64,000 bases of DNA, from positions 445,438 to 509,437 of the forward strand of contig JBAZNQ010000001.1 in the NCBI GenBank assembly GCA_041649135.1, given 5' to 3'. A program made the position numbers and the translations under genes. Every line of letters begins with the position of its first letter. The stretch's first letter is position 1. The notes under the pieces are model-generated. The model was not told the origin of the DNA, did not search any database, and saw nothing but the letters and a program-made list of their open reading frames with translations. The stretch comes from Patescibacteria group bacterium. Lineage in GTDB: Bacteria > Patescibacteriota > Kazan-3B-28. This document shows positions 10,507 to 63,199 of this stretch, piece after piece.

Positions 10507-11991
10507 CTATTTAATGTCAGATAAAAACTGGAAGATCTTAACCATCGCATAAGTGTCTAACTCACAGTATTTGGTTAGGTCTTTAAGAATCTTATCTTTC
10601 TCCTCGGCTCTTTTCCCATCTAAGACAGCTTCCATCCATAACCTTTGGGCGGCTCCACCGGCATGAATATCTAAATCCTTATATGAAAGTTCAGGGATAA
10701 GAACAGGCAATACCTGCTTGATTGAAGCACTCCCAAAGAAGTCCTTGTGAATGTAGGAACCAGTTGAGAAAGGAATCATCAAATCAACAATCCGATCATT
10801 CAGATCTTTATAAAAAGTTTTGAATTCTGGGAGTAGAAGTCCCAAAAACTCATTACAAGTCTTTTCAAAACCCTCAAACCAAACCAAGACCGTACCGCTA
10901 TCACCGATGTGCGACTTGAGCGATTCCGAGATTGGTTGTGCCGGGTTGCTGTTCTCGTGATGCAGATATTCAAAATGCTTTACCTCGCCTCCGGGCTTCT
11001 CGATGACGTGAAGAGAGTATTGAAACGGTAATTGTTTATACGGCCCTAACCCATCAAAGTACGGCACTACACTAGACAGGGTTTCGTAATCGAGGAAATA
11101 CAGGGGGTATTTTAGCTCAGACAAGAACTGCTTGATTTTTGGCTTGTCCACTAATACCTCGTCACACTTGGTTGCCTGAACTTGGCCTTGTTGTTTTACA
11201 CTAAGAGCAAAATCTTCCGGAATGTCTTTTATCTGCTTAATGCCCAATGTTTCAAGTTTGCCAATCTTACTCGCACCAGGAGCACAAAGATCATAAATAC
11301 TATATTCCTCTACCTCGGCAAGGGTCTTGAAGATCCCGAGCCAGTCATTGAAAGCCCCTAGCTTAGTCAAAGAAGGTGAAATATCTGGACACTCTTTAGA
11401 ATTCATCACCGCCAGAGCTTGTTTGATATTCTCTCTGGTAGTCTCCCGTAGTGCTTTGACTTGGTCAGTAACTTCAGTCATCTTGGCCAGATCTTTGGCC
11501 GTAACTTCTCCATTTCTAACATATTCATTGTTTACATGAACAACATAAATCTTGTTCACCTTGTAACCACAGTCTTCTAGCACTACCATCTGAAATGCCA
11601 AATCTGGCTCATGCTCTGGCTTAGCATGAGTGCTGGATTTAATCTCATAAAGATCGAACTCATTGTCCTTAACCCGAACCAACACATCGCAGATACAAGT
11701 AATGTCACCAGCTTCAAAGCGACCCTGCATAATAGTGATCGCCCCAGACTCTATCACTTGTTTCGTCTCGGCAGTTAACCTTGCGTATGCCTTATAGTCT
11801 CCTCGATCATATTCTAGCTTTGTGGCATCAGGGAAAAGCTGTTCGGCATATGTCTCGAACAGGAAACCAGCATCAAAAATCGCCTGTGTGTCTTCATCTA
11901 CAGGGGGTAATTTATCTTTGGCGTGTTTCTTGAGCCAGAGCCAGGCCGGATGGCGGAGAAACAACATATAATCTGACTTTGAGAGTTGCAT
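10507..11991 (-). CDS. DUF2779-like protein: N-terminal PD-(D/E)xK (RecB/Cas4-like) nuclease plus C-terminal RNaseH-like exonuclease domain
   Basis: D…EIK motif (CDVLVRV…DLYEIK) and a C-terminal FLDYETL… region. Confidence 0.55.
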   Translation of the reverse strand: MQLSKSDYMLFLRHPAWLWLKKHAKDKLPPVDEDTQAIFDAGFLFETYAEQLFPDATKLEYDRGDYKAYARLTAETKQVIESGAITIMQGRFEAGDITCICDVLVRVKDNEFDLYEIKSSTHAKPEHEPDLAFQMVVLEDCGYKVNKIYVVHVNNEYVRNGEVTAKDLAKMTEVTDQVKALRETTRENIKQALAVMNSKECPDISPSLTKLGAFNDWLGIFKTLAEVEEYSIYDLCAPGASKIGKLETLGIKQIKDIPEDFALSVKQQGQVQATKCDEVLVDKPKIKQFLSELKYPLYFLDYETLSSVVPYFDGLGPYKQLPFQYSLHVIEKPGGEVKHFEYLHHENSNPAQPISESLKSHIGDSGTVLVWFEGFEKTCNEFLGLLLPEFKTFYKDLNDRIVDLMIPFSTGSYIHKDFFGSASIKQVLPVLIPELSYKDLDIHAGGAAQRLWMEAVLDGKRAEEKDKILKDLTKYCELDTYAMVKIFQFLSDIK

Positions 11992-12085: not shown

Positions 12086-14353
12086 TTAATTCAGGTTAAG
12101 AATTTGAAACTCTTTTAGTGAAGGGTTGTAAGAATATTTTACGCCTCTATTAATCTTCCAGCCGTTTGGTCCGTCTTGTACGACAATCCCTCCATCAAAG
12201 CCCTTCTTGCCTTTAAGCCATTTTTGGAGCGCTTCGGCTTTATATCTCGTGTCACCACTTTCTGCAGTTAAACCCGCTTTAGTATCAAAGATACAAACAG
12301 CGGCTTTTGTCTGTACTATCCAGTCAGGATAAAATAGTTTTTCTTTATTTTCGTCTGTGTTGTAGTAAGAAATTGAAAAATATTCGCTCCCAACATCGCC
12401 ATTCTTATACCACCAAATAACATTTTTGGATGATTCGAGAAATTTAATAAACGCCTCCTCATTGATCCGCCCAGAGTATGCTTTTTCTATCCAAAATGGT
12501 TCCATTGCTGATTTCTTGACTGGTAATGACTCATATTGATCAGTAAAAAATAGAGTACCACGAGGGATATCAATATGCTCGATGCGTCGTGCGCGAGAAG
12601 ATCGCCTATTCACTTCTTGCTCCCGAACGGGACGATATGTCGAAAGTGAATCGCCGATAAGTGGTGCAAGTACCCCTGCCGGGCTAACGAGATCATTTAC
12701 GATAATTCGATAGACGTCAGCTCGAGAGATACCAAGCTTATTCATTAACCAAACATTTAAGGCCGTTTTTAGTTTTCCCCATGATCGTTCAGGGGCGAAT
12801 TTTTTGTTTTCGTCAACCTGGTTGGCGATTATCTTAAAACAAAGAAGGTTATAGAGTCGCTCAAGGTCATGCCGTGACATTTCTTGATCATGACTTCCGC
12901 CCTCCGCAAAAAGTTCTTTTGTGAAATTATCATAGTCATCTATTTCTACGCCAACAATTAAACCGTTTGTTACTTTTGGTTTCAGGTTCAATCTCTTAAC
13001 ATCAAATTTTTTATCAGCAACCTGTTTAAAAGTTTCTTGGAATGAGTCTCCCAAGTCGTTGTAGTCAGTGCGAGTCATAAAAATCGACTCTAGTTGAATT
13101 GGCTTTACATTCTTTTTACGATAACTGGCATTCGGTGAAGGACGATTTTCCGTTTTTGATTTTGCATACTCAGCAAGTACTTCGTTTCTCTTATAGTTAG
13201 TATAGAGATAACCCAAATTCAACTCTGGTTTAGGAAAGTGATAACCAAATGGCATACGTAAGATTCGTCCCACGGTTTGAATCGCAAAAGTGGGATTTTT
13301 AATTTCCCTGAACATCACCAGTACACTTGCTCTGGGGCAGTCCCAACCAGTAGCGGCGGCCTGTTTAAAAAGCAGAAATGCTACTGGAGAGTCGCTCTTT
13401 TCTAAATCCTCAAGGTTCTCCTTTTCCCTTGAAAGCCAAACGGCAATCTCATCGTTTTTTAGACCCTTACGCTTCAGATACTCCGAAACTATTGCCTGTT
13501 TCGTTGTCCCACCTGCTTCTTTAGACGCCTGATCATCGTTTGGTAACTGAATAAGAACGAGCGGATTGACCTTTATATCCAGCTCTTTGTATAAAGCAAT
13601 AATCTCTTTGCGCTTATTGTAGGCAAGTTCTAGGAGTAATTCGTCCTGATCGAGATTTTTGATTGTTTGTTGCTCTAAATCCTCTTCGGTTTGAAAAACA
13701 ATCTTTTCCTTAATAAGACCTGCTTCAATAACGTCTAACCTCGGCACATCAACAAACTTATATATCTCTCCTAATTTTGGTTCAAACAATGGTGTAGCTG
13801 AAACTCGAAGAGTAATTTTGGGTTTTACTAAGGCAATTACCTCATCCGCCAAAGCTGATCGAGTCCCCAACTGCTCTTCATCTATAATCAATACAATTTT
13901 TATTCCTGCCTCATGACTTTCGTTAATAAAATTATCAAAAGTGAGTCCAGTTTCATTTTCACGACGCAACTTTCGGCTTGCTTTGTCAGTGGCTTTGATC
14001 TTCTGCCAATTTATGAAAAATACATTATTTCTCTGTAACCTTCCGCGAGATAGGTCATTCAGATCAATCAAATCCAACTCTGAAGCTCCACCGTAATACT
14101 CAAAAAGTTTCTTTTTGCTTTGCTCATACGAATCCTCGCTGAAAGAAAACCAAATAAACGAGACGTCGTTACCCTCAAACCGAGGATCACTAACAATATC
14201 CCGTAAAAACTGTGCGAGCATGATTGTTTTGCCAGAACCAGTTGGTGACTTAAAAACCAATGGAATATTCTGATTTGGATTCTTCCACAACTCAAGAAAG
14301 TCATTCTTGAGATTAGATATCGCAGCTTCCTGAAAAGGTTTTAATACCAACAT
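12086..14353 (-). CDS. res: Type III restriction enzyme Res subunit (SF2 helicase-nuclease)
   Basis: Walker A SPTGSGKT and a DEEQ box. 755 aa, immediately downstream of the mod gene. Confidence 0.8.
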   Translation of the reverse strand: MLVLKPFQEAAISNLKNDFLELWKNPNQNIPLVFKSPTGSGKTIMLAQFLRDIVSDPRFEGNDVSFIWFSFSEDSYEQSKKKLFEYYGGASELDLIDLNDLSRGRLQRNNVFFINWQKIKATDKASRKLRRENETGLTFDNFINESHEAGIKIVLIIDEEQLGTRSALADEVIALVKPKITLRVSATPLFEPKLGEIYKFVDVPRLDVIEAGLIKEKIVFQTEEDLEQQTIKNLDQDELLLELAYNKRKEIIALYKELDIKVNPLVLIQLPNDDQASKEAGGTTKQAIVSEYLKRKGLKNDEIAVWLSREKENLEDLEKSDSPVAFLLFKQAAATGWDCPRASVLVMFREIKNPTFAIQTVGRILRMPFGYHFPKPELNLGYLYTNYKRNEVLAEYAKSKTENRPSPNASYRKKNVKPIQLESIFMTRTDYNDLGDSFQETFKQVADKKFDVKRLNLKPKVTNGLIVGVEIDDYDNFTKELFAEGGSHDQEMSRHDLERLYNLLCFKIIANQVDENKKFAPERSWGKLKTALNVWLMNKLGISRADVYRIIVNDLVSPAGVLAPLIGDSLSTYRPVREQEVNRRSSRARRIEHIDIPRGTLFFTDQYESLPVKKSAMEPFWIEKAYSGRINEEAFIKFLESSKNVIWWYKNGDVGSEYFSISYYNTDENKEKLFYPDWIVQTKAAVCIFDTKAGLTAESGDTRYKAEALQKWLKGKKGFDGGIVVQDGPNGWKINRGVKYSYNPSLKEFQILNLN

Positions 14354-14357
14354 AGAC

Positions 14358-16121
14358 TTATAGACGGTTTAACTCTTTGTATACCTCAAGAATCGGCTCA
14401 GGGATATCCTCGACTCGGATATTTTCCGAAGAATATTCACCTTTATATTCATTTTTACCCCAGCTAAAAATGTATAAAGCAACCGGCATATCTTTCTTCC
14501 CCAAACTTTTGACTAACTCCTCCAGCTTTGATTTATCTTCCTGAAAATAAATTGCAGACATCTGTTCATGTCCTCGAAATATCTGCCACCAATCGTTCCT
14601 CTCGATTTCATTAAGTGTATCTTCTCGCACCGCAATCATCTCTCCGGCTTGATAGGTAATGCGAATTTTTGCCTCATCCGGCACTTTGTGGATTTGTTCA
14701 ATATCCACGAGGTCAGTTTGGTAATACCAGAAGTTGCTCGGAATACCTAATACTTTATCGTCATTTTTATTCTTATATCCATTAATGACAGCATTGATAC
14801 GGGGGTAGCAAACTGATTCGGCAATGCCCCCATTGCCGTCATTATTATTTTCGTTATTAGTACAGAGTATAAATTTACGGTTACCACCATCCGCCTTATT
14901 CATCTCTAAAACAGCATGCCCAGTTGTCCCTGAGCCAGCAAAAAAGTCTAAAATATTTGCGTTTGGACGTGCACCTACAACAGCAAAAATACAGTCATAT
15001 ACAGTATAAAGTGACTTGGGGAAATCAAAATCACAATCTGGGATTATCTCACGCAGAAGCTTTGTTCCATACTCACCTGCATCATATTTCTTATCCGTCC
15101 AAACGGTTTTGTATGTTCCGTAATCTTTTGCAATCATTATCTGGATCATTCCGCCGTGCGATTCCTTAACCTGAAGGATATCTTTTATTCCCTCAACACT
15201 CTGTCTTGCATATCGCCACTTTCGTTCAACGCCCTTTTCGTCAATTGGCCAAACATAAACACTACCATCTTTTTTCTTTTCGTTTGCCGACTTCGGATGA
15301 ACATCGTCAGATACAACATTACCGAAGCCAATAATCTTTCCACTTTTTATGATCAATGGGTAGAAACAATTTCTTGCATCTGTACGCTTAGACTCATTGC
15401 CCCAATTACGCAAATTGGAAATATAGACCTCATCCTTAGCAAGAGAACGATCGCCGATGGTCTTTTTATTCTTCGGAACAACAAAAATTGCATATTCATG
15501 AGTATAGGAAAAGTTAGTGCCTTGGACACCCTTGGGATTATGAATAATGGTTACCGTATGTTGTTCGTGTGTTGGGAACAATTGCTCAATCAGCACTCCC
15601 AAATGTGCCTGCTCATTATCATCAATCGCACAAATCATTACACCATCATCTTTCAATAAATCTTTTGCCAAGCTGAGGCGATGGCGCATAAATGAGAGCC
15701 ACTTACTGTGTCTGTATTCGTCATCCCGATCCACATAATCATTGTTGTATTTCCAGTTTTTTGCGCCTGTGTTATACGGCGGATCAATGTAGATGAGATC
15801 AATATTCTTTTTGTGGGTGTAGTTGAGAACCGACAGTGCGAGATAGTTATCACCCTCAATCATCAAGTTATTCGGATACGCCTCGTCCAAATTAAGGCGG
15901 TTTTTAACAACTTCTTTCAGAACGGGGACTTTGATTTTTGATTGCTCAACAACATCTTCCATCTTGTCTTCAAAAACCAGCCCAAGATTGTTCTTCTTGA
16001 GTTTTTTGATTTGAGCTTGTAAATCCGCCACCTCTTTTTGTAAATCTTTTCCAGACATAATAATCACCCTTAAGCCATTCGACTCTAGCTCTATTATGGC
16101 TTCTTGCGAAGCTTTTTCCAA
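14358..16121 (-). CDS. mod: Type III R-M Mod subunit (N6-adenine DNA methyltransferase)
   Basis: DLIYIDPPYNTG (motif IV) and FFAGSGTTGHA (motif I). Confidence 0.85.
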   Translation of the reverse strand: MEKASQEAIIELESNGLRVIIMSGKDLQKEVADLQAQIKKLKKNNLGLVFEDKMEDVVEQSKIKVPVLKEVVKNRLNLDEAYPNNLMIEGDNYLALSVLNYTHKKNIDLIYIDPPYNTGAKNWKYNNDYVDRDDEYRHSKWLSFMRHRLSLAKDLLKDDGVMICAIDDNEQAHLGVLIEQLFPTHEQHTVTIIHNPKGVQGTNFSYTHEYAIFVVPKNKKTIGDRSLAKDEVYISNLRNWGNESKRTDARNCFYPLIIKSGKIIGFGNVVSDDVHPKSANEKKKDGSVYVWPIDEKGVERKWRYARQSVEGIKDILQVKESHGGMIQIMIAKDYGTYKTVWTDKKYDAGEYGTKLLREIIPDCDFDFPKSLYTVYDCIFAVVGARPNANILDFFAGSGTTGHAVLEMNKADGGNRKFILCTNNENNNDGNGGIAESVCYPRINAVINGYKNKNDDKVLGIPSNFWYYQTDLVDIEQIHKVPDEAKIRITYQAGEMIAVREDTLNEIERNDWWQIFRGHEQMSAIYFQEDKSKLEELVKSLGKKDMPVALYIFSWGKNEYKGEYSSENIRVEDIPEPILEVYKELNRL

Positions 16122-16200
16122 ATCTGATTTTGTCTGGACTTCGCCACCCCTTCGGGCATCCTTGTCCTTGATATAGCCCTATAGACAAATGGAGAAAAAT

Positions 16201-17556
16201 ATGGCGAAAAATGAAGCAATTCTGGGAGCTCCCGAGGGGTCTTCGGAGGCCCTTGAGCAACCACAAGGAGCCAAGTACTGTCTCTATGCCCGGAAGTCCT
16301 CAGAGCAGGATGAACGGCAGGCCCTTTCCATAGATAGCCAAATTAAGGAGATGTTGGCGATGGCCGAAAGGGACGGGATAGAGATCGTGGAGACTATCAA
16401 GGAAAGCCACTCAGCCAAGGACTCAGGCCAAAGACCTGCCTTTACCGAGCTTCTACTGAGAATCCGAGAAGGTGATTTCAATGGCATTCTGACATGGGCT
16501 CCAGACCGATTAAGCCGAAATGCCGGAGACCTCGGCTCCCTTGTCGACCTTATGGACCAAGGGCTTCTGCATGAAATCAGAACTCATGGTCAGATATTCA
16601 GAAACTCCCCTAACGAGAAGTTCCTCTTGATGATTCTCTGTAGCCAAGCCAAATTGGAAAATGACAACAAAGGCGTAAATGTTAAGCGAGGGATGCGAAC
16701 CAAATGTGAAATGGGCTGGCGACCGGGAGTCGCCCCCATAGGATATCTCAACAACTACGCAGATAACACTATTACGGTAGACCCGGAAAGAGCTCCCATC
16801 ATCAAAGAAATATTCAATAAGGTGGCCAAGCAGGGAGATTCAGGGCGCGACATTTTCAACTGGATCAACAATGAGACTTCCTTTATTACTAGAGGGGGCA
16901 AAAAAATGCCCTTGAGCACAATTTTTCTGATTCTCAAAAATAGCTTCTACTACGGAGAGTACACATACGGCGAGGGAACCTACCACGGCAAACATGAGCC
17001 ACTTATCACAAAAGAGCTATTTGATGAGGTGCAAGTCAGAATTTCCAAACCCGCCCATGGCCGTCATGGCGAGAAATGTTTCGCCTTCGCCAGAATGATG
17101 ACCTGTGGCCAATGCGGAGCCGGAATTACTGCCGAAGAAAAATTCAAGCGATTAAAGAATGGCGATATGATACGCCATATTTACTACCACTGTACCGACG
17201 GCAAAAGACTCGGCTGTAAACAACCCTATGTTAGGGAGGCAGATCTCATCGAACAATTTGTAGAAATAGTAGACAAGCTAACCTTAGACAGGATAGGGAT
17301 GAAGGATAGGTTACAAGAAGAAATAGACCGCTACAACAAGTTTACGCAAGGCGTGTTGGGGATGGACCCTTCCACTCAGAAGATGCCTCGAGTAGATCTA
17401 AAAATGTACGCCAAGTACATCCTGCGAGAAGGTCGCAACGAAGAAAAGAGAGAGGTGCTGAGCCACATCCAAAACAAAGTTGTACTGAATCAAGGGAAAC
17501 TAAAACTACAGGATAATAAGCAAGCCAACATGCCGGAAGTAACCCGCGTCAACTAA
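16201..17556 (+). CDS. Large serine recombinase (resolvase/invertase N-domain, recombinase domain, zinc ribbon)
   Basis: YARKSS catalytic serine motif, DRLSRN, and a CGQCG…YYHC zinc ribbon. GGAG RBS before ATG 16201. Paralog of 29847..31451. Confidence 0.85.
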   Translation: MAKNEAILGAPEGSSEALEQPQGAKYCLYARKSSEQDERQALSIDSQIKEMLAMAERDGIEIVETIKESHSAKDSGQRPAFTELLLRIREGDFNGILTWAPDRLSRNAGDLGSLVDLMDQGLLHEIRTHGQIFRNSPNEKFLLMILCSQAKLENDNKGVNVKRGMRTKCEMGWRPGVAPIGYLNNYADNTITVDPERAPIIKEIFNKVAKQGDSGRDIFNWINNETSFITRGGKKMPLSTIFLILKNSFYYGEYTYGEGTYHGKHEPLITKELFDEVQVRISKPAHGRHGEKCFAFARMMTCGQCGAGITAEEKFKRLKNGDMIRHIYYHCTDGKRLGCKQPYVREADLIEQFVEIVDKLTLDRIGMKDRLQEEIDRYNKFTQGVLGMDPSTQKMPRVDLKMYAKYILREGRNEEKREVLSHIQNKVVLNQGKLKLQDNKQANMPEVTRVN

Positions 17557-18640: not shown

Positions 18641-18669
18641 GGCTAATCTGGTTTTTGGGCTCCCAGACC

Positions 18670-18930
18670 GAAGTAGGCGCTTTAAGGCACCTCGGTCATT
18701 TGACTCGTTTTTGTTTGGCTCAACAGCTCGGTCTCGGTTGGTTTTCCACGCTAGTCCTCCATAGCGCTATCTATATCAGAAGAGGCTAATGACCTATTTC
18801 TGATGAGATAAAGCGTAGGATGGAAGGAGATAATCTAGAGGTTTTGAAAGGGTGTTTAGGGGGACAGGTTTTGTGTAACACCCATAGGAGAAAATGAGAC
18901 AAATGCGACAGTACTTTGGATGATTTTTAG
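18670..18930. repeat. Composite repeat (full Type-1 plus Type-2)
   Basis: The Type-1 core ends with …TGGCTCAACAGCTCGGT. Type-2 contains GGAGATAAT…CCCATAGGAGAAAATGAGACAAATGCGACAG. Confidence 0.75.
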
Positions 18931-25404: not shown

Positions 25405-25424
25405 GGTTCTATTGTATACCTCCT

Positions 25425-25500
25425 AAAGGACGCTTTGAGGCACCTCAGTCATTTGACTCGTTTTTATTTGGCTCCGTTGGCTAGAAGAAGTCAGGACTTG
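25425..25500. repeat. Type-1 repeat, variant tail (…TTTGGCTCCGTTGGCTAGAAGAAGTCAGGACT)
   Basis: Same head as other Type-1 copies. Shares its tail with 26640-26700. Confidence 0.8.
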
Positions 25501-26097: not shown

Positions 26098-26215
26098 ATT
26101 CTCTGGCTCCCCCTGCTGGATAAGTTTAGAAAAGTTGACTGGATAAAAGTCAGAAGAGAGTTAGATGATTTTGTATTAAAAAATGTCGGGGTTTCACCGA
26201 CTTCTATCGCCTGAG
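26098..26215. repeat. Type-3 repeat/gene-fragment (…LWLPLLDKFRKVDWIKVRRELDDF…*), homologous to 672-770. Begins with TGGCTCCCCCTGCTGGAT, which resembles the tRNA-Asn 3' end TGGCTCCCGCGGCTGGAT.
   Basis: Direct comparison: 15/18 identity with the tRNA-Asn 3' end at 31410-31427. Confidence 0.5.
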
Positions 26216-26639: not shown

Positions 26640-26700
26640 AGTCAAGCTTTTCTTGGTTTGGCTCCGTTGGCTAGAAGAAGTCAGGACTATGCCTGCCTAG
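26640..26700. repeat. Type-1 repeat tail fragment (TTTGGCTCCGTTGGCTAGAAGAAGTCAGGACT)
   Basis: Identical tail to 25470-25500. Confidence 0.7.
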
Positions 26701-29640: not shown

Positions 29641-29818
29641 TAGTGAGTCCCATAAGCTCCTCAACCTATACGCTGTAGCCCAAGGTGAAAGCCTGAAAAG
29701 CGCCATAGAGCATCTCATCAACTCTGCAATTGAAGCCGACTCAGAGCTTCAGCCACTTTTCATTCAGCTTGCCAACCACTCTGCAACAAAACCAGCAGAA
29801 CCTGCTGGACTTAAATAA
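29615..29818 (+). CDS. Small ribbon-helix-helix-like DNA-binding protein
   Basis: KLVRVSSESHKLLNLYAVAQGESLKSAIEHLI is RHH/Arc-like. Sits immediately upstream of the recombinase. Confidence 0.35.
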   Translation: MKDKLVRVSSESHKLLNLYAVAQGESLKSAIEHLINSAIEADSELQPLFIQLANHSATKPAEPAGLK

Positions 29819-29846
29819 AAACTTCGAGTATTGGTTTGTGTTGACT

Positions 29847-31451
29847 ATGAAATATATTCTCTACGCTAGAAAGTCCTCAGAAAGTGAAGACCGACAAGTA
29901 CTGTCGGTGGATTCGCAAATTCAAGAATTAAAGGCATTAGCCAAACGCAATGGTCAGCAAATAGTAGCTGTCCTTCAGGAATCGATGTCAGCCAAAGACC
30001 CAGAAAAGAGGCCAGTATTTGAAGAAATGGTAGATAGGATCAAGGGCGGAGAAGCTCAAGGTATTATCTGCTGGAAACTCGACCGATTAGCCCGCAATCC
30101 CGTTGATGGTGGAACAATCCAATGGATGCTCCAAAGAGGCGATGTCACGCACATTCAGACAGCTGATAGAAGTTATTACCCCAGCGACAATGTACTTCTG
30201 ATGAGTGTGGAGCTTGGTATGGCAAATCAGTTTATTCGAGACTTAAGTCAAAACACCAAAAGAGGTCTACGCGCAAAGGCAGCTCAAGGACACTATCCTG
30301 GCTATTCAACTATTGGATATATGCACGACCCTCTAGTCCCTAAGGGGAAAAAATATATCATCCCCGACCCAGAACGATTCTCGATTGTCCAACGAATGTT
30401 GCGACTAATAATTGATGGGGAAGCTAACCCACCTCAGGCACTAAAGGTCGCCACAGAAGAATGGGGTCTTAGAAGTAGGCTCGGCAACAAGTTGCCACAA
30501 AGTACTATCTATCGAATCATCAAAGATCCTTTTTACGCAGGATACTATGAATACCCTAAAGCCAGTGGTAATTGGTTTGATGGACTACATGAGGCAATGA
30601 TTACCAGAAGCGAGTACGACACACTCCAAGCAATTATGAAACGACCAAGTAGAACCCGTCCCAAAACCCTAATCTTTGCCTATACTGGCCTAATCTACTG
30701 TGGAGAATGTGGTGGTATGGTCACTGCCGAAATAAAAAGAAAGGTCTTAAAGAATGGGGAAATCAGAATCTACATCTACTATCACTGCACCAAGCGGAAA
30801 AATCCTAACTGCACTCAAAAGTGCATTACCGAAGAGGAGCTAGAATCTCAACTCGTAGCCATTCTTAAGCGAGTAGAACTCCCAGAGGATTTCAGCGAGT
30901 GGGTCATCAAGCAACTAGAGCTCATGAACCGCCAATCTGCCGAAAACCGCCAAGCCATATTGCGCGACCTGCAAGCTAACTACCAAAATTGCACCAAGCG
31001 TATCGACACCCTTATAGACATGCGTACTTCCGAAGCTATAACTTCAGAAGAGTTTGATACCAAGAAAGTTCAGCTACTAGCCGAAAAGGAACGAATCCAC
31101 GAGCTCCTGAATGACAAGGATCGCGATGTTAACCAGACCGTGGTTAGAACCGAGACAATCATAAGATTAGCCGAGCAAGCCACCCTTAAGCTCAAAACTG
31201 GTAGCATTCTCGAGAAGAAGCGTCTAGTATCCCAATTATGTTCGAACCTGACACTGCTAGACAATAAGCTCACCCTAGAAGTAGAAAAACCATTTTCTAT
31301 CGCAGAACGGCTGGCCACAGAAGTGCATGCCATTGCTGAAGGGTTAGAACCGCAAAAAGACCGCTCACAGAGCGACCTTATTGCCGAAAAACTAGTTGAT
31401 TCTGATAACTGGCTCCCGCGGCTGGATTCGAACCAGCGACCCATCGCTTAA
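29847..31451 (+). CDS. Large serine recombinase; the 3' end overlaps tRNA-Asn on the opposite strand
   Basis: YARKSS, DRLARN and a C-x2-C…YYHC zinc ribbon. Start taken at MKYILYARK. Confidence 0.85.
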   Translation: MKYILYARKSSESEDRQVLSVDSQIQELKALAKRNGQQIVAVLQESMSAKDPEKRPVFEEMVDRIKGGEAQGIICWKLDRLARNPVDGGTIQWMLQRGDVTHIQTADRSYYPSDNVLLMSVELGMANQFIRDLSQNTKRGLRAKAAQGHYPGYSTIGYMHDPLVPKGKKYIIPDPERFSIVQRMLRLIIDGEANPPQALKVATEEWGLRSRLGNKLPQSTIYRIIKDPFYAGYYEYPKASGNWFDGLHEAMITRSEYDTLQAIMKRPSRTRPKTLIFAYTGLIYCGECGGMVTAEIKRKVLKNGEIRIYIYYHCTKRKNPNCTQKCITEEELESQLVAILKRVELPEDFSEWVIKQLELMNRQSAENRQAILRDLQANYQNCTKRIDTLIDMRTSEAITSEEFDTKKVQLLAEKERIHELLNDKDRDVNQTVVRTETIIRLAEQATLKLKTGSILEKKRLVSQLCSNLTLLDNKLTLEVEKPFSIAERLATEVHAIAEGLEPQKDRSQSDLIAEKLVDSDNWLPRLDSNQRPIA

Positions 31452-31503: not shown

Positions 31504-31560
31504 AGTTAATATCCAATTTCCAATATCCAATTCTCAAGTGTCCAATATCCAATGCCCAAT
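31504..31560. repeat. CCAAT heptad tandem array (CCAATNN x ~7)
   Basis: 7-bp periodic. An inverted partner lies at 31941-31966. Confidence 0.7.
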
Positions 31561-31562
31561 AA

Positions 31563-31940
31563 TCAAGAAGCAGAGACTTTAGCTATCATTTTGTTTTTGA
31601 TGGTCGCCAGTATTTTAACTATTTCTTGCCCTTCCGTAAACACCCCATCAAGAGCCAATAAGTCAACCGATTTTCGAACCTTTAGTATTCTCAACCAGTA
31701 CAGTGTCTCCTTAGCCTCTTTTAGAGCAATTGAGAGTTTATGTATAAAGTCTTTGTCCGACTGCGCTTCGCTTGCCTCCATCATATTGGCAGCGATTGAG
31801 GTAGCTGACCGTACCAACTGGCCAACGAGAGGACGAGATCTAAAATCTAGCACTACACCGTCAGTCAGTTGCAAAACTCGGTCAGCCAATGCTTCACAGC
31901 GATCATAAATATCAATTTTGTTTCCAGCTCGTTCCCCCAT
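31563..31940 (-). CDS. Four-helix-bundle protein (23S rRNA intervening-sequence protein family)
   Basis: IANMMEASEAQSDKDFIHKLSIALKEAKETLYWLRI signature. Confidence 0.7.
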   Translation of the reverse strand: MGERAGNKIDIYDRCEALADRVLQLTDGVVLDFRSRPLVGQLVRSATSIAANMMEASEAQSDKDFIHKLSIALKEAKETLYWLRILKVRKSVDLLALDGVFTEGQEIVKILATIKNKMIAKVSAS

Positions 31941-31966
31941 TGAATATTGGAGATTGGATATTAAGT
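31941..31966. repeat. Inverted CCAAT heptad array (ATTGGAGATTGGATATT)
   Basis: Reverse complement of the 31504-31560 array. Confidence 0.65.
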
Positions 31967-35606: not shown

Positions 35607-35804
35607 ATCCTTGCTCCAAATTCTAATTTCGAATCTCTAAATTCTAAACAAATCCCAAACTCTAACTTCCTAAACTGTTTCTCATGCGTCATCCCCGAAC
35701 CGACAACGATAGCACGTCGATATCGGGGATCCAGACAAAAACAGAAACATTTTTATTTTTAAGGTCTAGATCCCCGCCTTCGCGGGAATGACAACCAAGG
35801 AGGA

Positions 35805-35935
35805 CTCTACTCTCTACTCTCTACTCTCTACTCTCTACTCTCTACTCTCTACTCTCTACTCTCTACTCTCTACTCTCTACTCTCTACTCTCTACTCTCTA
35901 CTCTCTACTCTCTACTCTCTACTCTCTACTCTCTA
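35805..35935. repeat. Perfect heptanucleotide microsatellite (CTCTACT) x ~18
   Basis: Seen directly. The ORF-track entry 35788..36003 is a translation of it. Confidence 0.95.
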
Positions 35936-37581: not shown

Positions 37582-37597
37582 CACGTTAATATTCAAT

Positions 37598-37660
37598 ATC
37601 CAATCTCCAATTTTTCAACCATCATAGCCCCATTGGACATTGGGCATTGGACATTAGCCC
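37598..37660. repeat. Inverted pair of CCAAT heptad arrays (TTAATATTCAATATCCAATCTCCAAT … ATTGGACATTGGGCATTGGACATT) with a ~20-bp spacer
   Basis: Matches the arrays flanking the four-helix-bundle gene. Confidence 0.7.
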
Positions 37661-38240: not shown

Positions 38241-38693
38241 AGCCACCTCCAAGTTCTCAAAGGGGACACCAGCCCCCTCTGGTTTTGATGACTCCACTCT
38301 ACACCTCCCCAACCCCATTGAGCAAATAGCGTCCGCCAATAGCAAAATTGACCGCTTAGCCCAGCATGTTTGAGGAGCAAAGCGACGAGTTTGCGATTAA
38401 GGCAAGAAAGGTCAATTTTGCTCTATTGGCTAGCTATTTGTGATTGGGCGTCCTTTCGGTGCTACCGCTTTGGACGAGCAAAGCGGTAGCGAAAAAGAAA
38501 ATGGATTCCCGCCTTCGCGGGAATGACGACGGGGGTATGGGGGTTGACCCCCAGAATAAAACAACCTATACTGCCCTCATATAAAACCTAACCTTCTACT
38601 CCCCGAGACAACCTCGGGGCAAAGCCCCCTCACAGAGGCTCACCCATAGACAAGGCTGACTTCAGATAGGTAAAAGTTGCCAAAGGCAACCCC

Positions 38694-38763
38694 CATCACT
38701 GTTCACTATTAACTATTCACTCTTCACCCCTCACTATTAATTATTAACCATTAACTAACCCCT
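38694..38763 (+). promoter_or_regulatory. Heptad-periodic leader (TTCACTA/TTAACTA x ~9) directly abutting the rpsF start codon, with no Shine-Dalgarno
   Basis: 7-bp periodicity, seen directly. Confidence 0.7.
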
Positions 38764-39312
38764 ATGGCTACACAGGAAGAAATCACCTTCGGTAACTACG
38801 AAGTTACCCTGCTCATCTCCCCCGAGACACAGGAGATGGATATTCAAAAGCTTGTCACCAAGCTCCAGAACCAAATCGCCCAAAAGGGCGGCCGGATTCT
38901 ATTCACTAATCTCTGGGGCAAACAGCGCCTAGCCTATCCAATTGGCAAGTTCGAGTTTGGCCACTACGCCAATCTCGTTTTTAGCTATCCCTCGGCTCAA
39001 CTAAGTGATTTCAGTCACGACATCAAACTAATGCCGGAAATCGTCCGTCACCTTATCATTTCTCTCGATAAAGAGGGTGTGAAACCAGAAACAATGAGAC
39101 AGTTTGATCCGTTCAAGGAACAGGCCATGTCTTCTCGTACAACTACTGAAGGACGTTCGATATCCCCAGTCGCTCCAATTCGAGCTCGGAAAACTTCTAC
39201 TATCGGACGTCCGACATCCCCTGTTGAAAAACCAAAAGCATCCGACAAGGATGAGGCCACTCGTCTGAAAGAGCTGGAAGAAAAACTCGGCAAACTACTC
39301 GAAGAAGAATAA
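38764..39312 (+). CDS. rpsF: 30S ribosomal protein S6 with a C-terminal extension
   Basis: N-terminal S6 fold signature (YEVTLLISPE…). Operon with ssb and rpsR. Confidence 0.85.
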   Translation: MATQEEITFGNYEVTLLISPETQEMDIQKLVTKLQNQIAQKGGRILFTNLWGKQRLAYPIGKFEFGHYANLVFSYPSAQLSDFSHDIKLMPEIVRHLIISLDKEGVKPETMRQFDPFKEQAMSSRTTTEGRSISPVAPIRARKTSTIGRPTSPVEKPKASDKDEATRLKELEEKLGKLLEEE

Positions 39313-39321
39313 TAAAAGCAC

Positions 39322-39376
39322 CACAGGCGCTACCACAACTTTTCACTTACCACTTATAACTTTTAACTATCCAACC
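39322..39376 (+). promoter_or_regulatory. Heptad-periodic (CTTNNNA) leader abutting the ssb start codon
   Basis: Seen directly. Confidence 0.6.
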
Positions 39377-40747: not shown

Positions 40748-40785
40748 CTCTAGTGGCTAGTGGCTAATCCCTAAACTCTAACTTT
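40748..40785 (+). promoter_or_regulatory. Heptad-periodic leader (CTAGTGG CTAGTGG CTAATCC CTAAACT CTAACTT) abutting the efp start codon
   Basis: A 25-mer is identical to 62762-62787. Confidence 0.65.
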
Positions 40786-41371: not shown

Positions 41372-41535
41372 CCCGTCATTCCGGCCTCCACCTGCCCGCC
41401 TTTGGAGGGAGCCGGAATCCAGACAACAACAGAAACATTTTTTATTTTCTTTGCTGGATTCTCCGGTTCCATCCTTCGTTCGCCATGGCGAACTACGGAG
41501 GACTAACGCAAGCCGGAGAATGACAAAATTAAATA
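41372..41535. repeat. MITE-like hairpin element (CCGTCATTCCGGC…GCCGGAATCCAGACAACAACAGAAACATTTTTTATTTT … GCCGGAGAATGACAAAA)
   Basis: Shares the block CCAGACAAnAACAGAAACATTTTTATTTT with 35735-35765. Confidence 0.55.
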
Positions 41536-42037: not shown

Positions 42038-42073
42038 AAACCCCAGCACATTTTGATTATTGGTTATTGGTAA
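42038..42073 (+). promoter_or_regulatory. Heptad-periodic (ATTGGNN) leader abutting the ychF start codon
   Basis: TTATTGG TTATTGG TAATTGA TTATTAA. Confidence 0.6.
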
Positions 42074-43183
42074 TTGATTATTAACTCTATGAGTTTAAAA
42101 ATTGGTATCGTTGGCCTCCCCAACGTCGGGAAATCTACTTTATTTAATGCTCTACTTGGTGCCAACCAAGCAACGGCTTCCAATTTCCCGTTCTGTACTA
42201 TCGAACCGAACACCGGCATCGTTCCCGTTCCCGATGCTCGTCTGGCCAAACTCTCCGAGCTGGAACATTCAGCTCAAATCGTCCCTGCTACCGTTGAGTT
42301 TGTGGATATTGCCGGTCTTGTGCGCGGCGCCTCCCAAGGTGAAGGATTAGGCAACAAATTCCTTTCTCATGTTCGCGAAGTGGACGCCATCCTTGAAGTC
42401 GTTCGTTTGTTTTCCGATTCCAATGTCACCCATGTTAGCGGCGATATTTCGCCCAAAGACGATATTGAGATCATCAATACCGAGCTTATTCTTGCCGACC
42501 TACAAAGTATGGAGGGACGCTTAGTCAAAGAAGAAAAGGCTGCCCGCGGCGATGCCAAACTTCAGCCCAAAGTAGATTTCTTTCTAAGAGTCCAAGAACA
42601 TTTAGGTAACGGTCTACCCGCTCGCTCAATGAACTTGTCTGACACAGAGCTCCTGTGGTTAAAAGAACTTCAGCTCATTTCCGCCAAACCCATTCTTTAC
42701 ATCGCTAATATCGACGGTACCCAAATCAAAGATGCCGTTACCCTTCTCAACCCAGTTCACGAACTTGTTACCAAAGACAACGCCGAGATTATCGCCATTG
42801 ACGCCAAGACTGAAGCCGAAGTCGTAGAACTTACGCCAGAAGAACGCATCGATTATCTTCGCGAAGCTGGTATTACCGAGTCAGGCTTGGACAAGGTTAT
42901 CCGTGCCGGCTACAAGTTACTCGGTCTCATCACCTATTTCACCGCCGGCGAAAAAGAAACCCGCGGTTGGACTATTCACAATGGCGATACCGCTCCCATT
43001 GCCGCCGGTGCCATTCATACCGATTTCACCAAAGGCTTCATCCGTGCTGAAACCGTTGGCTTTAATGATTTCATCAACAACGGCGGTTGGATCGGTGCCA
43101 AAACTGCTGGAAAGGTCCGAAGTGAAGGCAAAGACTACGTCGTTAAAGACGGCGATGTCATGCTCTTCCGCTTCAACGTGTAA
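42074..43183 (+). CDS. ychF: Ribosome-binding ATPase YchF (Obg-family GTPase)
   Basis: G1 motif GIVGLPNVGKSTLFNAL and a TGS C-domain. Confidence 0.9.
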   Translation: MIINSMSLKIGIVGLPNVGKSTLFNALLGANQATASNFPFCTIEPNTGIVPVPDARLAKLSELEHSAQIVPATVEFVDIAGLVRGASQGEGLGNKFLSHVREVDAILEVVRLFSDSNVTHVSGDISPKDDIEIINTELILADLQSMEGRLVKEEKAARGDAKLQPKVDFFLRVQEHLGNGLPARSMNLSDTELLWLKELQLISAKPILYIANIDGTQIKDAVTLLNPVHELVTKDNAEIIAIDAKTEAEVVELTPEERIDYLREAGITESGLDKVIRAGYKLLGLITYFTAGEKETRGWTIHNGDTAPIAAGAIHTDFTKGFIRAETVGFNDFINNGGWIGAKTAGKVRSEGKDYVVKDGDVMLFRFNV

Positions 43184-44920: not shown

Positions 44921-45267
44921 CCCGGCACCCGCCGGGTTTTTCTTTGCCTAGTTCCCCTCTCCGCCATTGGAGCTTGAGCGTCCTGAATCAACCAAATCCC
45001 GAAAATAGAGCGTGCCCATGTTTGAGGAGCTGGCAAGCTCCGAGTTCGCCGAGAGCGAAGAAAGCTAATTTTATTAGGCGAACAATTACAACGACCCCAA
45101 AGGGGAGCCTTAGGCTCTGGCGGGCGACTTTGGTTACTTTTGACAAGCCAAAAGTATCGCTGGATCAAACGCCAGCTAGCGTTTGGCTTCCGCCGATGGC
45201 AATCGGCATATAAAAATAGATTCCAGCCTGCGCTGGAATGACAAAAAATAAGGAAGTATAGGAGGGA

Positions 45268-50595: not shown

Positions 50596-50640
50596 TCCCT
50601 AATCTCTGACCCCTAGTCCCTAATCCCTATAGACTCCCCT
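50596..50640. repeat. Heptad-periodic (CCCTAAT/CCCTAGT) tandem array
   Basis: Seen directly, between the rnhB stop and the yraN start. Confidence 0.55.
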
Positions 50641-58380: not shown

Positions 58381-60795
58381 TTAAACAAAATTAATAACTC
58401 TGTCCCTCACAAAAATATGTTTGCTGGCACCCTCCGCCACTTTCTTTAGTTTCTCGTTTTGGTTCACCGCCGTCAGAACTTCCGCTTCACTCGCCCCTGC
58501 CGACATTTCAATTGTTCCTCGTAGTTTCCCCTTTTCCTGCACCGCGATCACTACAACTTTCGCCCGCGCTTTTTCGGGATCAAATTTTGGCCAATCAGCA
58601 TCCGTTACACTACCTTGCTGTTGTAACACCACTTGCCATAGCTCCTCCGCCAAATGCGGAGCGAAAGGGTTCAGTAACTTCGCAAAATCTACCAGCCAGT
58701 TGGTACTATCATCCTTGCTCACCTCGTTCACAAATTCCATCATACTGCTAATCGCCGTATTGAATTTTAATTCGGTAATATCTTCAGTTACTTTCTGAAC
58801 CAAACCATGGATGGCATCATTGTCGCCTCCCTTTTCCCCGACCCGCTCACCAATAATTCGATACACCCGTTCCAAGAATTTCCGTACTCCCGAGATACCA
58901 TTCGTATCCCAAGCGATCGCTTGATCAAACGGCCCCATAAACATTTCATACATCCGTACGGCATCAGCTCCATACTGGTCAATTAGTTCATCAGGATTAA
59001 TCACATTCCCCCGACTCTTACTCATCTTTTCCCCATCTGACGCCAAAATTAACCCTTGATGCCGAAGCTTCAAAAACGGCTCATCAAAATCTAAATAACC
59101 TAGTTTGTGCAAAGCCTTGGTAATAAATCTGGCATATAACAAATGTCCGTTGGTATGCTCTGCCCCACCAATATATAAATCTACCGGCATCCAGTATTTC
59201 AAAGACTCTTTACTAGCAAATTTCGTCTCGTTTTTCGGATCGCAATACCGTAAGTAATACCATGACGAACAAACAAAGGTATCCATCGTATCCAGCTCTC
59301 GATGCGCCCCCTTGCCATACTTTTCTTCTACCCCAGCCTGAAAAGTTTTTGAGTAAGCAAGAGGCGATTCACCATGTGGCTTAAAATCAACATCACTCGG
59401 CAACATCACCGGCAAATCCCTTTCATCCACCGCCACCACCTCCCACTCCTCCCCGCCTTTAATTGGTGAGATTGGTGTAGATTGGCGAGATTGTTTAGAT
59501 TCCCCCGCTGGTCGATAGACCACGGGTATTGGTGCTCCCCAATACCGCTGACGCGATATCAGCCAATCGTGTAATTTGTACTGCACCGTCACCTTCCCGC
59601 CAAATTTCTTGGCAATTTTTGCTGCCGCCCCTTTGGAGTCTTGCCCATCAAATTCACCCGAATTCATCAGCTCGCCATGTCCGGCATAAAATTTTTCATC
59701 CGATCCAATAACTTGAACCACCGGCAGATCAAATTTCTTAGCGAATTCAAAATCCCGCTCATCATGCGCTGGCACTGCCATGATCGCTCCCGTGCCGTAA
59801 TCCATCAGCACATAATCCGCAACCCAAATTGGGATCTCTTTTTTCGTAGCTGGATTAATCGCCATCACCCCCTTCAGACAAACCCCACTTTTCTCTTTTT
59901 GTGTCTGACGAGTTAGTGTGTTCTTCCGTCTTGCTTGCTCAATGTAATTTTGTACTTCCTCAAGATTCTGGATGCTAGATGCCAACTGCTGGATCAACTC
60001 ATGTTCAGGAGCTAGCACTAAATAAGTCGCCCCGAACAGTGTATCTGCCCTCGTCGTAAACACCTTGACTCGCGACTCGTTACTCGCGACTCGAAACTCT
60101 ATTTCTGCTCCTTCCGACTTCCCGATCCAATTTCGTTGCCCCGTCTTGGTCGACTCCGGCCAATCTAATTTATCCAACCCCACCAACAGTTCTTCTGCAA
60201 AATCCGTGATCTTGAAAAACCATTGCTTCAGTTTTTTCTGTTCGACTTGGCTGCCGCATCTCTCACAACAACCATTCACCACCTGCTCGTTAGCTAACAC
60301 AGTTTGATCCTTCGGACACCAGTTGGCATAAGCTTCCTTTTGATAAGCCAGTCCGTTGTCATATAAAACTTTGAACACCCACTGTGTCCATTTGTAATAA
60401 CTTGGATCAGCCGTATTCACTTCTCTACTCCAATCGTAGGCAAACCCAAACGATTTCATCTGCTGCGTAAATCGGGCAATATTCTTTTTGGTCGTTTCTG
60501 CCGGTGGTTGTCCGATTTTAATCGCATAGTTCTCCGCCGGCAAACCAAAAGCGTCCCAACCAATTGGGTGTAATACATTGTAGCCCTTCATTCGATAGTA
60601 CCGCGTAAAAATATCTGTCGCCGTAATCCCCCGCGGATGTCCAGTATGTAACCCATCTCCCGATGGATAAGTGAACATATCCAACGCATAAAACTTATGC
60701 GCCTTGTCGCCATCTACTGCCTTAAAAGTCTGGCGCTCTTCCCAATACTTCTGCCACTTCGGCTCAATCTGTTTGTGATCGTATTTGTCTACCAC
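58381..60795 (-). CDS. leuS: Leucyl-tRNA synthetase
   Basis: HIGH-class motif (HTGHPRG) and KMSKS. 804 aa. Confidence 0.95.
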   Translation of the reverse strand: MVDKYDHKQIEPKWQKYWEERQTFKAVDGDKAHKFYALDMFTYPSGDGLHTGHPRGITATDIFTRYYRMKGYNVLHPIGWDAFGLPAENYAIKIGQPPAETTKKNIARFTQQMKSFGFAYDWSREVNTADPSYYKWTQWVFKVLYDNGLAYQKEAYANWCPKDQTVLANEQVVNGCCERCGSQVEQKKLKQWFFKITDFAEELLVGLDKLDWPESTKTGQRNWIGKSEGAEIEFRVASNESRVKVFTTRADTLFGATYLVLAPEHELIQQLASSIQNLEEVQNYIEQARRKNTLTRQTQKEKSGVCLKGVMAINPATKKEIPIWVADYVLMDYGTGAIMAVPAHDERDFEFAKKFDLPVVQVIGSDEKFYAGHGELMNSGEFDGQDSKGAAAKIAKKFGGKVTVQYKLHDWLISRQRYWGAPIPVVYRPAGESKQSRQSTPISPIKGGEEWEVVAVDERDLPVMLPSDVDFKPHGESPLAYSKTFQAGVEEKYGKGAHRELDTMDTFVCSSWYYLRYCDPKNETKFASKESLKYWMPVDLYIGGAEHTNGHLLYARFITKALHKLGYLDFDEPFLKLRHQGLILASDGEKMSKSRGNVINPDELIDQYGADAVRMYEMFMGPFDQAIAWDTNGISGVRKFLERVYRIIGERVGEKGGDNDAIHGLVQKVTEDITELKFNTAISSMMEFVNEVSKDDSTNWLVDFAKLLNPFAPHLAEELWQVVLQQQGSVTDADWPKFDPEKARAKVVVIAVQEKGKLRGTIEMSAGASEAEVLTAVNQNEKLKKVAEGASKHIFVRDRVINFV

Positions 60796-62599: not shown

Positions 62600-62744
62600 A
62601 CCTAAATTGTACTACAGAGATAGTACATGTGAAGTTTGGATTCCGCTTCTAACAATAATCCGACTTACAATCGACGTATCTCGCTACTCGCCCTCGCCAA
62701 CAGCCATCGCTCGTCCGAATATAACAATTCCCGCCCCTAGATGC

Positions 62745-62800
62745 TAGATGCTATATCACTCCCCCTAGTGGCTAGTGGCTAATCCCTAGTGGCTAAATTA
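62745..62800. repeat. Heptad-periodic array (TAGATGC x2 … TAGTGGC x3)
   Basis: Shares a 25-mer with the efp leader. Confidence 0.6.
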
Positions 62801-63199
62801 GACTTCTATCTTCTTGGCAATCTTGCCCAAAATCGGCATTTCCCACCGCTTCCCGCGGAATATTGAATAAACGCCGAACAAGCTCAATGCCACAAACAAT
62901 ACCCAAGCGACTGCTCCCAACATTGCCGTAACCCCCAAATTCATACTTGGGAACAGCGCCACAAAAAACGACTCCAGCATAAACAGCAAAAACCACGCTA
63001 TTACTTCAGCCCCGAACAATACTAATCCTTGCTTGGCATGAAAGTAAACTTCATCCTGATCATGTCTTAAAATCAACGGCACAATAAACAAAATCGACAT
63101 ATACGACAACGCCGCAAACACCTTATCCTCCCCACCCAAACCACGGTGGCGAGATTCATGTTGGTCAGACACAGGTTGGTTATTTTCTTCCATAATCAC
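62798..63199 (-). CDS. DUF4870-family small membrane protein
   Basis: KVFAALSYMSILFIVPLI…FHAKQGLVLF signature. Confidence 0.55.
   Translation of the reverse strand: MIMEENNQPVSDQHESRHRGLGGEDKVFAALSYMSILFIVPLILRHDQDEVYFHAKQGLVLFGAEVIAWFLLFMLESFFVALFPSMNLGVTAMLGAVAWVLFVALSLFGVYSIFRGKRWEMPILGKIAKKIEV

Follow-up and report, generated by a model that had tools for sequence, protein, structure and literature searches.

Heptanucleotide repeat arrays as probable slippage-made, unstructured leaders of core genes in a Kazan-like CPR bacterium

Introduction

In a 64,000-nucleotide stretch of DNA from a Kazan-like CPR bacterium, here called the window and analysed over its whole length, the start codons of rpsF, ssb, efp and ychF directly follow tandem 7-bp units, and no Shine-Dalgarno (SD) sequence precedes them. 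This arrangement raises two questions: how such arrays came to lie before core genes, and whether they have a part in the translation of the genes that they precede.

Heptanucleotide repeats in cyanobacteria have been known since 1990, with CCCCAGT, TTGGTCA and CAACAGT as the canonical units of STRR1-3. A/U-rich, unstructured leaders and enhancers without an SD are in turn associated with S1-dependent initiation, the T7 gene 10 ‘epsilon’ UUAACUUUA being an example. Closest to the situation described here are the TAACTGA heptamer repeats of Beggiatoaceae, cyanobacteria and Bacteroidetes, which mostly end 1 nt before starts, lack an SD and also occur within ribosomal-protein operons; S1, Csp and CsrA have been proposed as their binders, and B. 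subtilis CspB has been reported on heptamer repeats with one protein per heptamer (MacGregor 2015, PMC4679880). The features and hypotheses set out in a preliminary description of the window are the same as those that MacGregor gave for the TAACTGA repeats (PMC4679880). More generally, heptamers are over-represented among bacterial repeats and, at a given intergenic position, differ from one close relative to the next, for which slippage related to the polymerase footprint has been proposed (Rehm 2015, PMC4692102). In Haemophilus influenzae, the (ATCTTTC)n heptamer repeat of hmw1A/hmw2A is transcribed in the 5' UTR and acts through structure (PMC12721329, PMC8262952). A literature search found no report of heptamer repeats in CPR bacteria.

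Results

The nearest named homologues of the window's ribosomal protein S6 belong to candidate division Kazan-3B-28 (CPR), at 44-49% identity, and metagenomic relatives share 65-91%. The gene order rpoD-dnaG-NT5C...rpsF-ssb-rpsR-efp-ychF...clpB-nusA is syntenic in relatives, and the identities of rpsF, ssb, efp, ychF and dnaG were confirmed, the first four as originally assigned. The first part of the window (1-31.4 kb) is a mobile/defence island adjoining tRNA-Asn, with two large serine recombinases, a type III restriction-modification system, a ParB-methylase and a Cas4-like protein. A YchF search of genome contigs returned matches of at most 58% identity from unrelated phyla, and these served as a control set.

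When lags 3-15 were scanned over the whole window in 42-nt windows, a self-match of at least 80% was reached at lags 7 and 14 only, and at lags 10 and 12 a few windows reached 70%. TRF gives period 7 at 31508-61, 37588-611 and 37631-55, 38705-57, 40750-66, 42053-82, 50596-629, and 62737-53 and 62765-95, so that the 7-bp periodicity first noticed holds at every position named for it. Altogether 11 intergenic period-7 arrays lie in the window, all between 31.5 and 64 kb (Table 1). Every one exceeds its 20,000 shuffles (p 5e-5 to 1e-3, hence p <= 0.001 each), with lag-7 matches of 0.55-0.89 per array against at most 0.44 at any other lag. The window sequence is identical in four independent assemblies and is thus not an assembly artefact. 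None of the 11 arrays falls in the 31-kb island despite its larger non-coding DNA (p = 1.2e-5), and in the core half they account for ~16% of non-coding bases. A further TRF match of period 7/14, at 60067-60099, lies inside a coding region and was left out of the array count.

Table 1. Positions of the period-7 arrays and of the elements of the rpsF leader in the window.
Feature	Position	Strand	Basis
AATATCC-family array, between the 23S-rRNA-IVP gene (3' end) and tRNA-Asn	31508..31567	+	TRF, lag scan, shuffles
Three units of the AATATCC family directly before the start codon of the 23S-rRNA-IVP gene (gene 31563-31940, minus)	31942..31962	-	shuffles
dnaG array, sense strand: gtttaga atttaga gattcga aattaga atttgga	35615..35649	-	TRF, shuffles
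Perfect CTCTACT x18.7 array between NT5C and dnaG	35805..35935		TRF
Two inverted AATATCC-family arrays (37588-611, 37631-55) upstream of tRNA-Ser	37588..37655		TRF
rpsF promoter: -35 TTGACC, 17-nt spacer, -10 TATACT	38544..38572	+	promoter scan and relatives; context, outside the repeat
Conserved rpsF 5' UTR: AACCTTCT box, hairpin 38601-38619, CATAGAcAAGG SD-like box 38645-38655	38590..38655	+	leader alignments
Spacer with small hairpin GTTGCC-AAA-GGCAAC (38676-38690), from SD-like box to heptads	38656..38693	+	window and L088 only
rpsF array, ten degenerate heptads of TTCACTA/TTAACTA type, up to ATG at 38764	38694..38763	+	TRF, lag scan
ssb array: cttttca cttacca cttataa cttttaa ctatcca, then ‘acc’, ATG 39377	39339..39373	+	p = 3e-4
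efp array: ctagtgg ctagtgg ctaatcc ctaaact ctaactt, then ‘t’, ATG 40786	40750..40784	+	TRF, shuffles
ychF array: ttgatta ttggtta ttggtaa ttgatta ttaactc, then ‘t’, ATG 42089	42053..42087	+	TRF, lag scan, shuffles
TCCCTAA-family array over the RNase HII stop, ~60 nt upstream of yraN (UPF0102)	50596..50640		TRF, shuffles
CTAGATG x2.4 + CTAGTGG/CTAATCC array just past the stop of gene 62798-63199	62737..62795		TRF

At least eight unit families are present within one 32-kb stretch, and the leader arrays among them are degenerate, with TRF matches of 65-88%. Two families recur at dispersed loci: AATATCC units lie at 31508, 31942 (reverse complement), 37588 and 37631 (reverse complement), that is, in both orientations, and the CTAGTGG unit lies at 40750 and 62765. 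The second pair includes an identical stretch that had been put at 25 nt and taken as the sign of a propagating element; the stretch is real and measures 24 nt (40750-73 = 62765-88), the variant unit CTAATCC included.

That the arrays abut start codons, as first claimed, is true of part of the set. Five of the 11 lie away from protein starts: two sites, with three TRF arrays between them, adjoin tRNA genes and three arrays stand at gene 3' ends, where the ends of only two arrays overlap the gene termini. In co-directional spacers, the start is the nearer end for 9 of 10 arrays (median distance 6.5 nt, vs 29 nt to the stop; p = 0.02), a bias absent from cyanobacterial control spacers (2 of 7). 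A scan for period 7 upstream of start codons, of the kind that the preliminary description had called for genome-wide, was run over 161 clade genes, and 12 of them have a lag-7 match of at least 0.57 at -35..-1 and two at -70..-36, compared with none of 322 coding windows. Eight further cases occur just after stop codons, some of which are probably the same arrays in short spacers. At this threshold lags 3-6 and 8 gave nothing in upstream windows or coding sequence, and just after stops lags 5 and 6 each reached it once, against eight times for lag 7.

The absence of an SD from the array leaders was upheld. With a canonical anti-SD assumed, pairing at -5 kcal/mol or better is found for one heptad-led gene among 12, compared with 35% of other genes; the remaining 11 lack SD pairing, and the sole exception is dnaG (GGAGCAAGG), where GGAG stands between array and ATG. 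On the same assumption, 33% of all genes pair at this level vs 14% of shuffled leaders. As about two thirds of clade genes have no SD anyway, the arrays are not needed to explain SD-less initiation.

Array leaders are unpaired in single folds. The minimum free energy (MFE) of the region -40..+15 is -2.4 kcal/mol for heptad-led genes vs -7.9 for other genes (p = 1.5e-5), and G content is 7% vs 22%. Folding z-scores against shuffles are near 0, so that the openness is a matter of base composition and selection for it is not demonstrated by this comparison. Most start-abutting arrays are on the C-rich strand, and their poverty in G could therefore reflect a strand composition bias. The leader arrays are unpaired sequence directly upstream of AUG, in an mRNA whose transcription we infer, and such G-poor, unstructured leaders are compatible with the early idea of AU-rich enhancers of the S1 type. 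Several leaders contain UUAACU- or CUAACUUU-like strings, and many end in TAAC(T/C)-like units that resemble TAACTGA. TAAC or the ‘epsilon-like’ UUAACUUU was considered as a start-proximal motif and rejected, being enriched (19 observed vs 7.8 expected) no more than other AT-rich 4-mers.

The history of one array can be followed at rpsF, which encodes a ribosomal protein S6 of 182 aa. TTGAC-N17-TATACT or a close variant is present in 10 of the 11 relatives whose fetched sequence extends to the promoter region, at an unchanged distance from the conserved leader; the sequence of L100 is cut off upstream. The array lies ~115-180 nt downstream of the TTGACC-N17-TATACT promoter, and because this conserved consensus promoter lies upstream, the array very probably sits in the 5' UTR. 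In ten relatives the leader ends in CATAGAAAAGGATTTTTCA(C/A)(T/C) ATG or a close variant, with an AAGGA SD-like box ~10 nt ahead of the ATG. A stretch of ~100 nt, missing in the other relatives, separates the ancestral AAGG (38652-55) from the ATG in the window and in L088 (91% S6 identity), which is its closest relative. The first part of this stretch is the hairpin-bearing spacer, absent from the ten others, and the second is the array, with the units catcact gttcact attaact attcact cttcacc cctcact attaatt attaacc attaact aacccct (lag-7 match 43/63, p <= 5e-5), which in single folds is unpaired along its full length as RNA. Judged from the leader alignments, the array is recent, found in the window and its closest relative only, and its arrival has evidently pushed the old SD-like box beyond range of the start. 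The leader of L088 has two fewer units (14 nt) and one further base difference. Array-less relatives retain an ancestral ‘...TTTTTCACT ATG’, and the match between its end, TTCACT ATG, and the array unit TTCACTA suggests that the array may have been seeded from local sequence. A search of the rpsF leader (38350-38800) against Rfam at permissive thresholds gave nothing better than E = 1.2, and at the gathering score only tRNAs were found.

The leaders of ssb, efp and ychF consist of five units apiece, with 1-3 nt left before the ATG; the ssb array folds with an MFE of 0 kcal/mol. These arrays lie within the string rpsF-ssb-rpsR-...-efp-...-ychF, which is syntenic and whose spacers have no terminator-like site on the + strand, and this speaks for their being part of the mRNA.

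Comparison with relatives shows turnover at gene junctions. Relatives have heptads with other units (AACTTTT/CACTTAT, AAATTCT, CTTATCA, GATTGGT, TCACTTT, TTATTCA), or none at all, at the junctions of ssb, rpsR, efp, ychF and RNase HII-yraN. The ssb array is homologous in L093, consists of other units in L088 and is missing from L085, the relative with an AAATTCC array at the RNase HII-yraN junction; the ychF array has a degenerate homologue in L089. Both unit number and sequence thus vary between close relatives. Among the near-identical strains L081-L084, by comparison, no copy-number variation of leader arrays was seen, and L082 differs only at its ends. The rpsF-ssb spacer of the window is closer to that of a 70%-identity relative than to that of the 91%-identity relative. 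Hairpin-type small repeats have also spread in these spacers.

The most striking array of the window, the perfect CTCTACT repeat, had been missed in the preliminary description. CTCTACT repeat units themselves make up the end of NT5C, namely its TAG stop and the five codons before it, and in relatives this gene overlaps dnaG without any spacer. Contigs of one sample carry 18 vs 17 units; assemblies break at this array, and all short-read contigs end inside it. Since leader arrays are identical in near-identical strains, present-day slippage is seen at the perfect array only, and even there the difference could be an effect of assembly.

The inverted pair of AATATCC-family arrays could form a long imperfect hairpin, with a folding energy of -20 to -29 kcal/mol.

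Discussion

By our comparisons, the arrays are members of the general heptanucleotide-repeat class known from cyanobacteria, Xanthomonas and Beggiatoaceae, here in a new lineage and with a putative function as leaders. They share with that class exact 7-bp head-to-tail units, non-coding location, dispersed families and variation, and no new kind of element is revealed. The interest of the CPR case is that it adds a phylogenetically remote and compact comparison set to an old question about heptamers. The data are unusually clean, coming from a tiny streamlined genome in which the arrays are confined to resident DNA, near start codons, and in which the rpsF array separates a conserved, SD-bearing leader from its ATG. 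There are practical consequences as well: start codons in these genomes are not callable by a search for SDs, and short-read assemblies break at perfect arrays.

The arrays resemble the TAACTGA repeats in several ways. In both cases 7-nt tandem units, in two to six or more copies and often with variant heptamers between them, lie mostly in the forward direction, end within a few nucleotides of the start, precede genes that usually lack an SD and occur inside operons for ribosomal proteins and translation factors; those described here in co-directional spacers are forward, with a median of 6.5 nt to the start, and 11 of 12 heptad-led genes have no SD. Unlike the TAACTGA repeats, they have no single unit and fall into at least eight families, they are longer and more degenerate, and their host, a Kazan-like CPR bacterium, has a small genome. 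Of TAACTGA itself the window has one occurrence on the + strand and six on the - strand, all of them isolated copies.

The cyanobacterial STRR of Calothrix, Nostoc and Anabaena and the GGGAATC and GGGGA(T/C)T heptamers of Xanthomonas/Nostoc are likewise period-7 and intergenic (PMC4692102). As here, there are several unit families per genome, sometimes in inverted pairs, and length and sequence vary greatly at one intergenic position between close relatives. The host phylum is another, and the units of the window are rich in A, T and C and are not G4-forming. With a Kazan-3B-28 host, and with no TRF consensus equal to any of the three STRR units named in the Introduction, the arrays are not STRR in the strict, cyanobacterial sense. 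The cyanobacterial control loci are rich in heptads, and in five of the control sequences (L013, L015, L028, L046, L056) a heptad or heptad-like leader abuts the ychF ATG, the hosts of such leaders being Nostoc, Cuspidothrix, Anabaena and a Microcoleaceae bacterium. The preference for start codons sets the two apart, at 9 of 10 arrays in this clade vs 2 of 7 in the sampled cyanobacterial spacers. To A/U-rich enhancers without an SD, the arrays are similar in being G-poor, unpaired sequence directly before AUG; those enhancers are not tandem repeats.

We propose, as the probable reading of these data, that the arrays are slippage-made heptanucleotide simple sequence repeats (SSRs) that act as unstructured, SD-free leaders. 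They would arise and change one unit at a time, for which replication slippage is the simplest cause, sometimes after seeding from local sequence and occasionally with the same type of array appearing at a second locus, and in the Kazan-like lineage they would have come to occupy the resident chromosome's short non-coding spacers. Among the origins first suggested for the arrays, generation by slippage fits best, given the two-unit difference at rpsF in the relative with 91% S6 identity and the 17- and 18-unit forms of the perfect array.

In most cases the transcribed array would then form the final 20-70 nt of a 5' UTR or of an intercistronic spacer, where it would replace or displace an SD and leave a G-poor, A/U/C-rich and essentially unpaired landing zone for the ribosome. 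Translation of rpsF, ssb, efp and ychF would begin on this open leader independently of an SD. The arrays may be kept more often in the few tens of nucleotides directly ahead of a start codon because there they provide, or at least leave undisturbed, an open leader without an SD, and may thus be tolerated or favoured for keeping the start region open.

A different reading gives the sequence of the heptads a meaning: each unit could be a recognition module for one OB-fold RNA-binding protein (S1 or a cold-shock protein), with such proteins covering the leader and recruiting or admitting the ribosome, and the arrays a selected translational enhancer or post-transcriptional regulon. The bias toward start codons and the recurrence of heptads at corresponding junctions of relatives even as their sequences turn over both speak for recognition, as do the retention of arrays in a streamlined genome, where they fill 16% of core non-coding DNA, the TAACTGA-like ends of many leaders, and the single CspB per heptamer and the S1, Csp and CsrA proposals already cited (PMC4679880). 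Sequence-specific recognition is made less likely, however, by the many families in 32 kb and by the turnover of units at one junction between relatives. Furthermore, TAAC near starts is no more enriched than other AT-rich 4-mers, TAACTGA is never in tandem here, some arrays are reversed, beside tRNAs or at 3' ends, and no cold-shock or S1 gene was found within the 64-kb window. We therefore consider such modules unlikely, if worth bearing in mind.

It is tempting to go further and imagine a selected, SD-independent ribosome-entry module in which the heptad is the footprint of an OB-fold (S1/Csp-like) protein or of the 30S mRNA channel, and which arose or spread separately in CPR bacteria, cyanobacteria and Beggiatoaceae. 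If true, this would explain why the unit is 7 nt long and why a streamlined genome of ~1 Mb gives ~16% of its core non-coding DNA to arrays that end ~6 nt before starts. We regard it as a doubtful proposition, somewhat bolder than the recognition modules just discussed.

Small mobile or gene-converting elements, inserting beside starts and owing their periodicity to the element itself, are an improbable source of the arrays. The identical 24-mer with its variant unit at 40750 and 62765 speaks for such an element, and the AATATCC family at four sites in both orientations is in keeping with it; so too are the affinity of the rpsF-ssb spacer to the 70%- rather than the 91%-identity relative and the spread of hairpin-type small repeats in these spacers. 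The arrays, however, are not bordered by terminal inverted repeats or target duplications and have no flanks in common, they vary in length by entire units, the unit family is mostly particular to the locus, and the rpsF unit matches ancestral local sequence. Of the propagating element first postulated, the recurrence of the 24-mer at two loci and of AATATCC at four places thus stands, while the unrelated flanks and at least one array that looks locally seeded go against it.

Phase variation, in which gain or loss of 7-bp units would tune expression through leader length or structure, is very improbable for the arrays as a whole and plausible for the perfect CTCTACT array only. The hmw repeats provide the precedent, as a transcribed heptamer acting via 5'-UTR structure (PMC12721329); on the reading proposed above, they resemble the arrays here in being heptanucleotides of a 5' UTR whose unit number slippage changes, and in being able to form a hairpin arm. 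The 17- and 18-unit CTCTACT versions in one sample, the two-unit difference between the rpsF leaders of close relatives and the long hairpin possible at 37588-37655 point the same way. The hmw repeats, however, are perfect, highly variable within populations and in control of an adhesin, whereas the leader arrays are degenerate, which makes them poor substrates for slippage, are identical in four assemblies of the strain and stand before housekeeping genes; the downstream products (S6, SSB, EF-P, YchF, primase and a UPF0102 protein) are not surface or host-interaction proteins. The likeness to a contingency repeat of the hmw type is confined to the CTCTACT x18.7 array, which lies downstream of a gene, not in a promoter or leader.

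That the arrays are UP-element or promoter arrays, as had been allowed at first, or internal promoters for leaderless or short-leader mRNAs, accords with their AT-rich sequence upstream of genes but is scarcely credible, as the rpsF array lies well past a promoter common to 10 of 11 relatives, the rpsF, ssb, efp and ychF arrays have no promoter-like match on the + strand, and such matches number 10 where shuffles lead one to expect 9.1. The only one of these inside an array and in the orientation of the gene is TTTAGA-N17-TAGAAT, a 9-of-12 match within the dnaG array.

Heptad repeats at the rpsF, ssb and dnaG junctions

The rpsF 5' UTR follows a conserved order in which a AACCTTCT box is succeeded by a hairpin and then by CATAGAAAAGGA directly before the ATG. 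In the window, a heptad insertion parts this conserved 5' UTR from the start codon. The leader may be of the S6:S18 autoregulatory type; Rfam holds no match to it. Downstream, the rpsF-ssb spacer (39313-39376) is far more like that of one relative (L093, 10532-10597) than that of another (L088, 831-887), yet S6 identity to the window is 70% for the relative with the similar spacer and 91% for the one with the dissimilar spacer. It follows that, in one lineage, this spacer was replaced or exchanged.

NT5C and dnaG overlap in relatives; here the perfect CTCTACT array lies between them and provides NT5C with its final five codons and its stop. Unit count differs between contigs of the same sample (18 in one, 17 in the other), and a T-to-G change is also present in the 17-unit contig. 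All short-read contigs terminate inside the array. A perfect AAGGAGGA directly adjoins its upstream side on the + strand (35790-35804), and no start codon follows it; read on the - strand, the same segment is UCCUCCUU, directly after the repeat. The inverted AATATCC-family arrays can fold, unit pairing with unit, into an extended hairpin with imperfect pairing, at -20 to -29 kcal/mol.

In five cyanobacterial control loci (L015, L046, L028, L056 and L013, at about 9960-10015), from Nostoc, Cuspidothrix, Anabaena and Microcoleaceae, ychF likewise has a leader of heptads, or of heptad-like units, right up against its start codon, with units such as AAAATCC/AAATCTC or TTTTGAC.

Features of the window and their coordinates
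Feature	Coordinates	Context
CTCTACT array, perfect, x18.7	35805-35935	between NT5C and dnaG
Conserved rpsF 5' UTR	38590-38655	homologous leaders in L085, L089, L092-L101 (fetched loci)
Two AATATCC-family heptad arrays, inverted orientation	37588-37655	upstream of tRNA-Ser
Dispersed hairpin element	35726-35795, 38504-38530, 41414-41530, 45219-45245	
Mobile and defence island	1-31484	adjoining tRNA-Asn
Large serine recombinases (two)	16189-17556, 29730-31451	island
Type III restriction-modification genes	12086-16121	island
ParB-methylase	6697-8022	island
DUF2779/Cas4-like protein	10507-11991	island
Dispersed-repeat families, 30-68 nt	600-740, 2559-2634, 4619-4700, 18667-18742, 18874-18912, 25420-25498, 26104-26171, 26657-26688	island

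A dispersed hairpin element

The hairpin element, laid out as GGATYC-stem-loop-stem-GAATGACRA and often preceded by CAGAAACATTTTTTATTTT, may represent a small mobile element of the miniature type, or else a structured RNA that has gone unrecognised. Its CCCGC-N4-GCGGGRAT core gave 4 matches against 0.09 expected by chance, these being two palindromic copies each counted on both strands. The element also occurs in the ssb leader of L089 and upstream of ychF in L099 and L168, and one copy, between efp and ychF, keeps its position across the clade.

Strand bias and the mobile island

Between 32000 and 64000, the + strand has a strongly negative GC skew, from -0.15 to -0.34, independent of gene orientation. 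This points to a replication-strand bias in which the G-rich strand carries most of the genes. In the island the skew is weaker, Shine-Dalgarno sequences are somewhat commoner and heptad arrays are absent. The 30-68-nt repeats of the island sit between small ORFs, mostly on the same strand, in an arrangement that is cassette-like.
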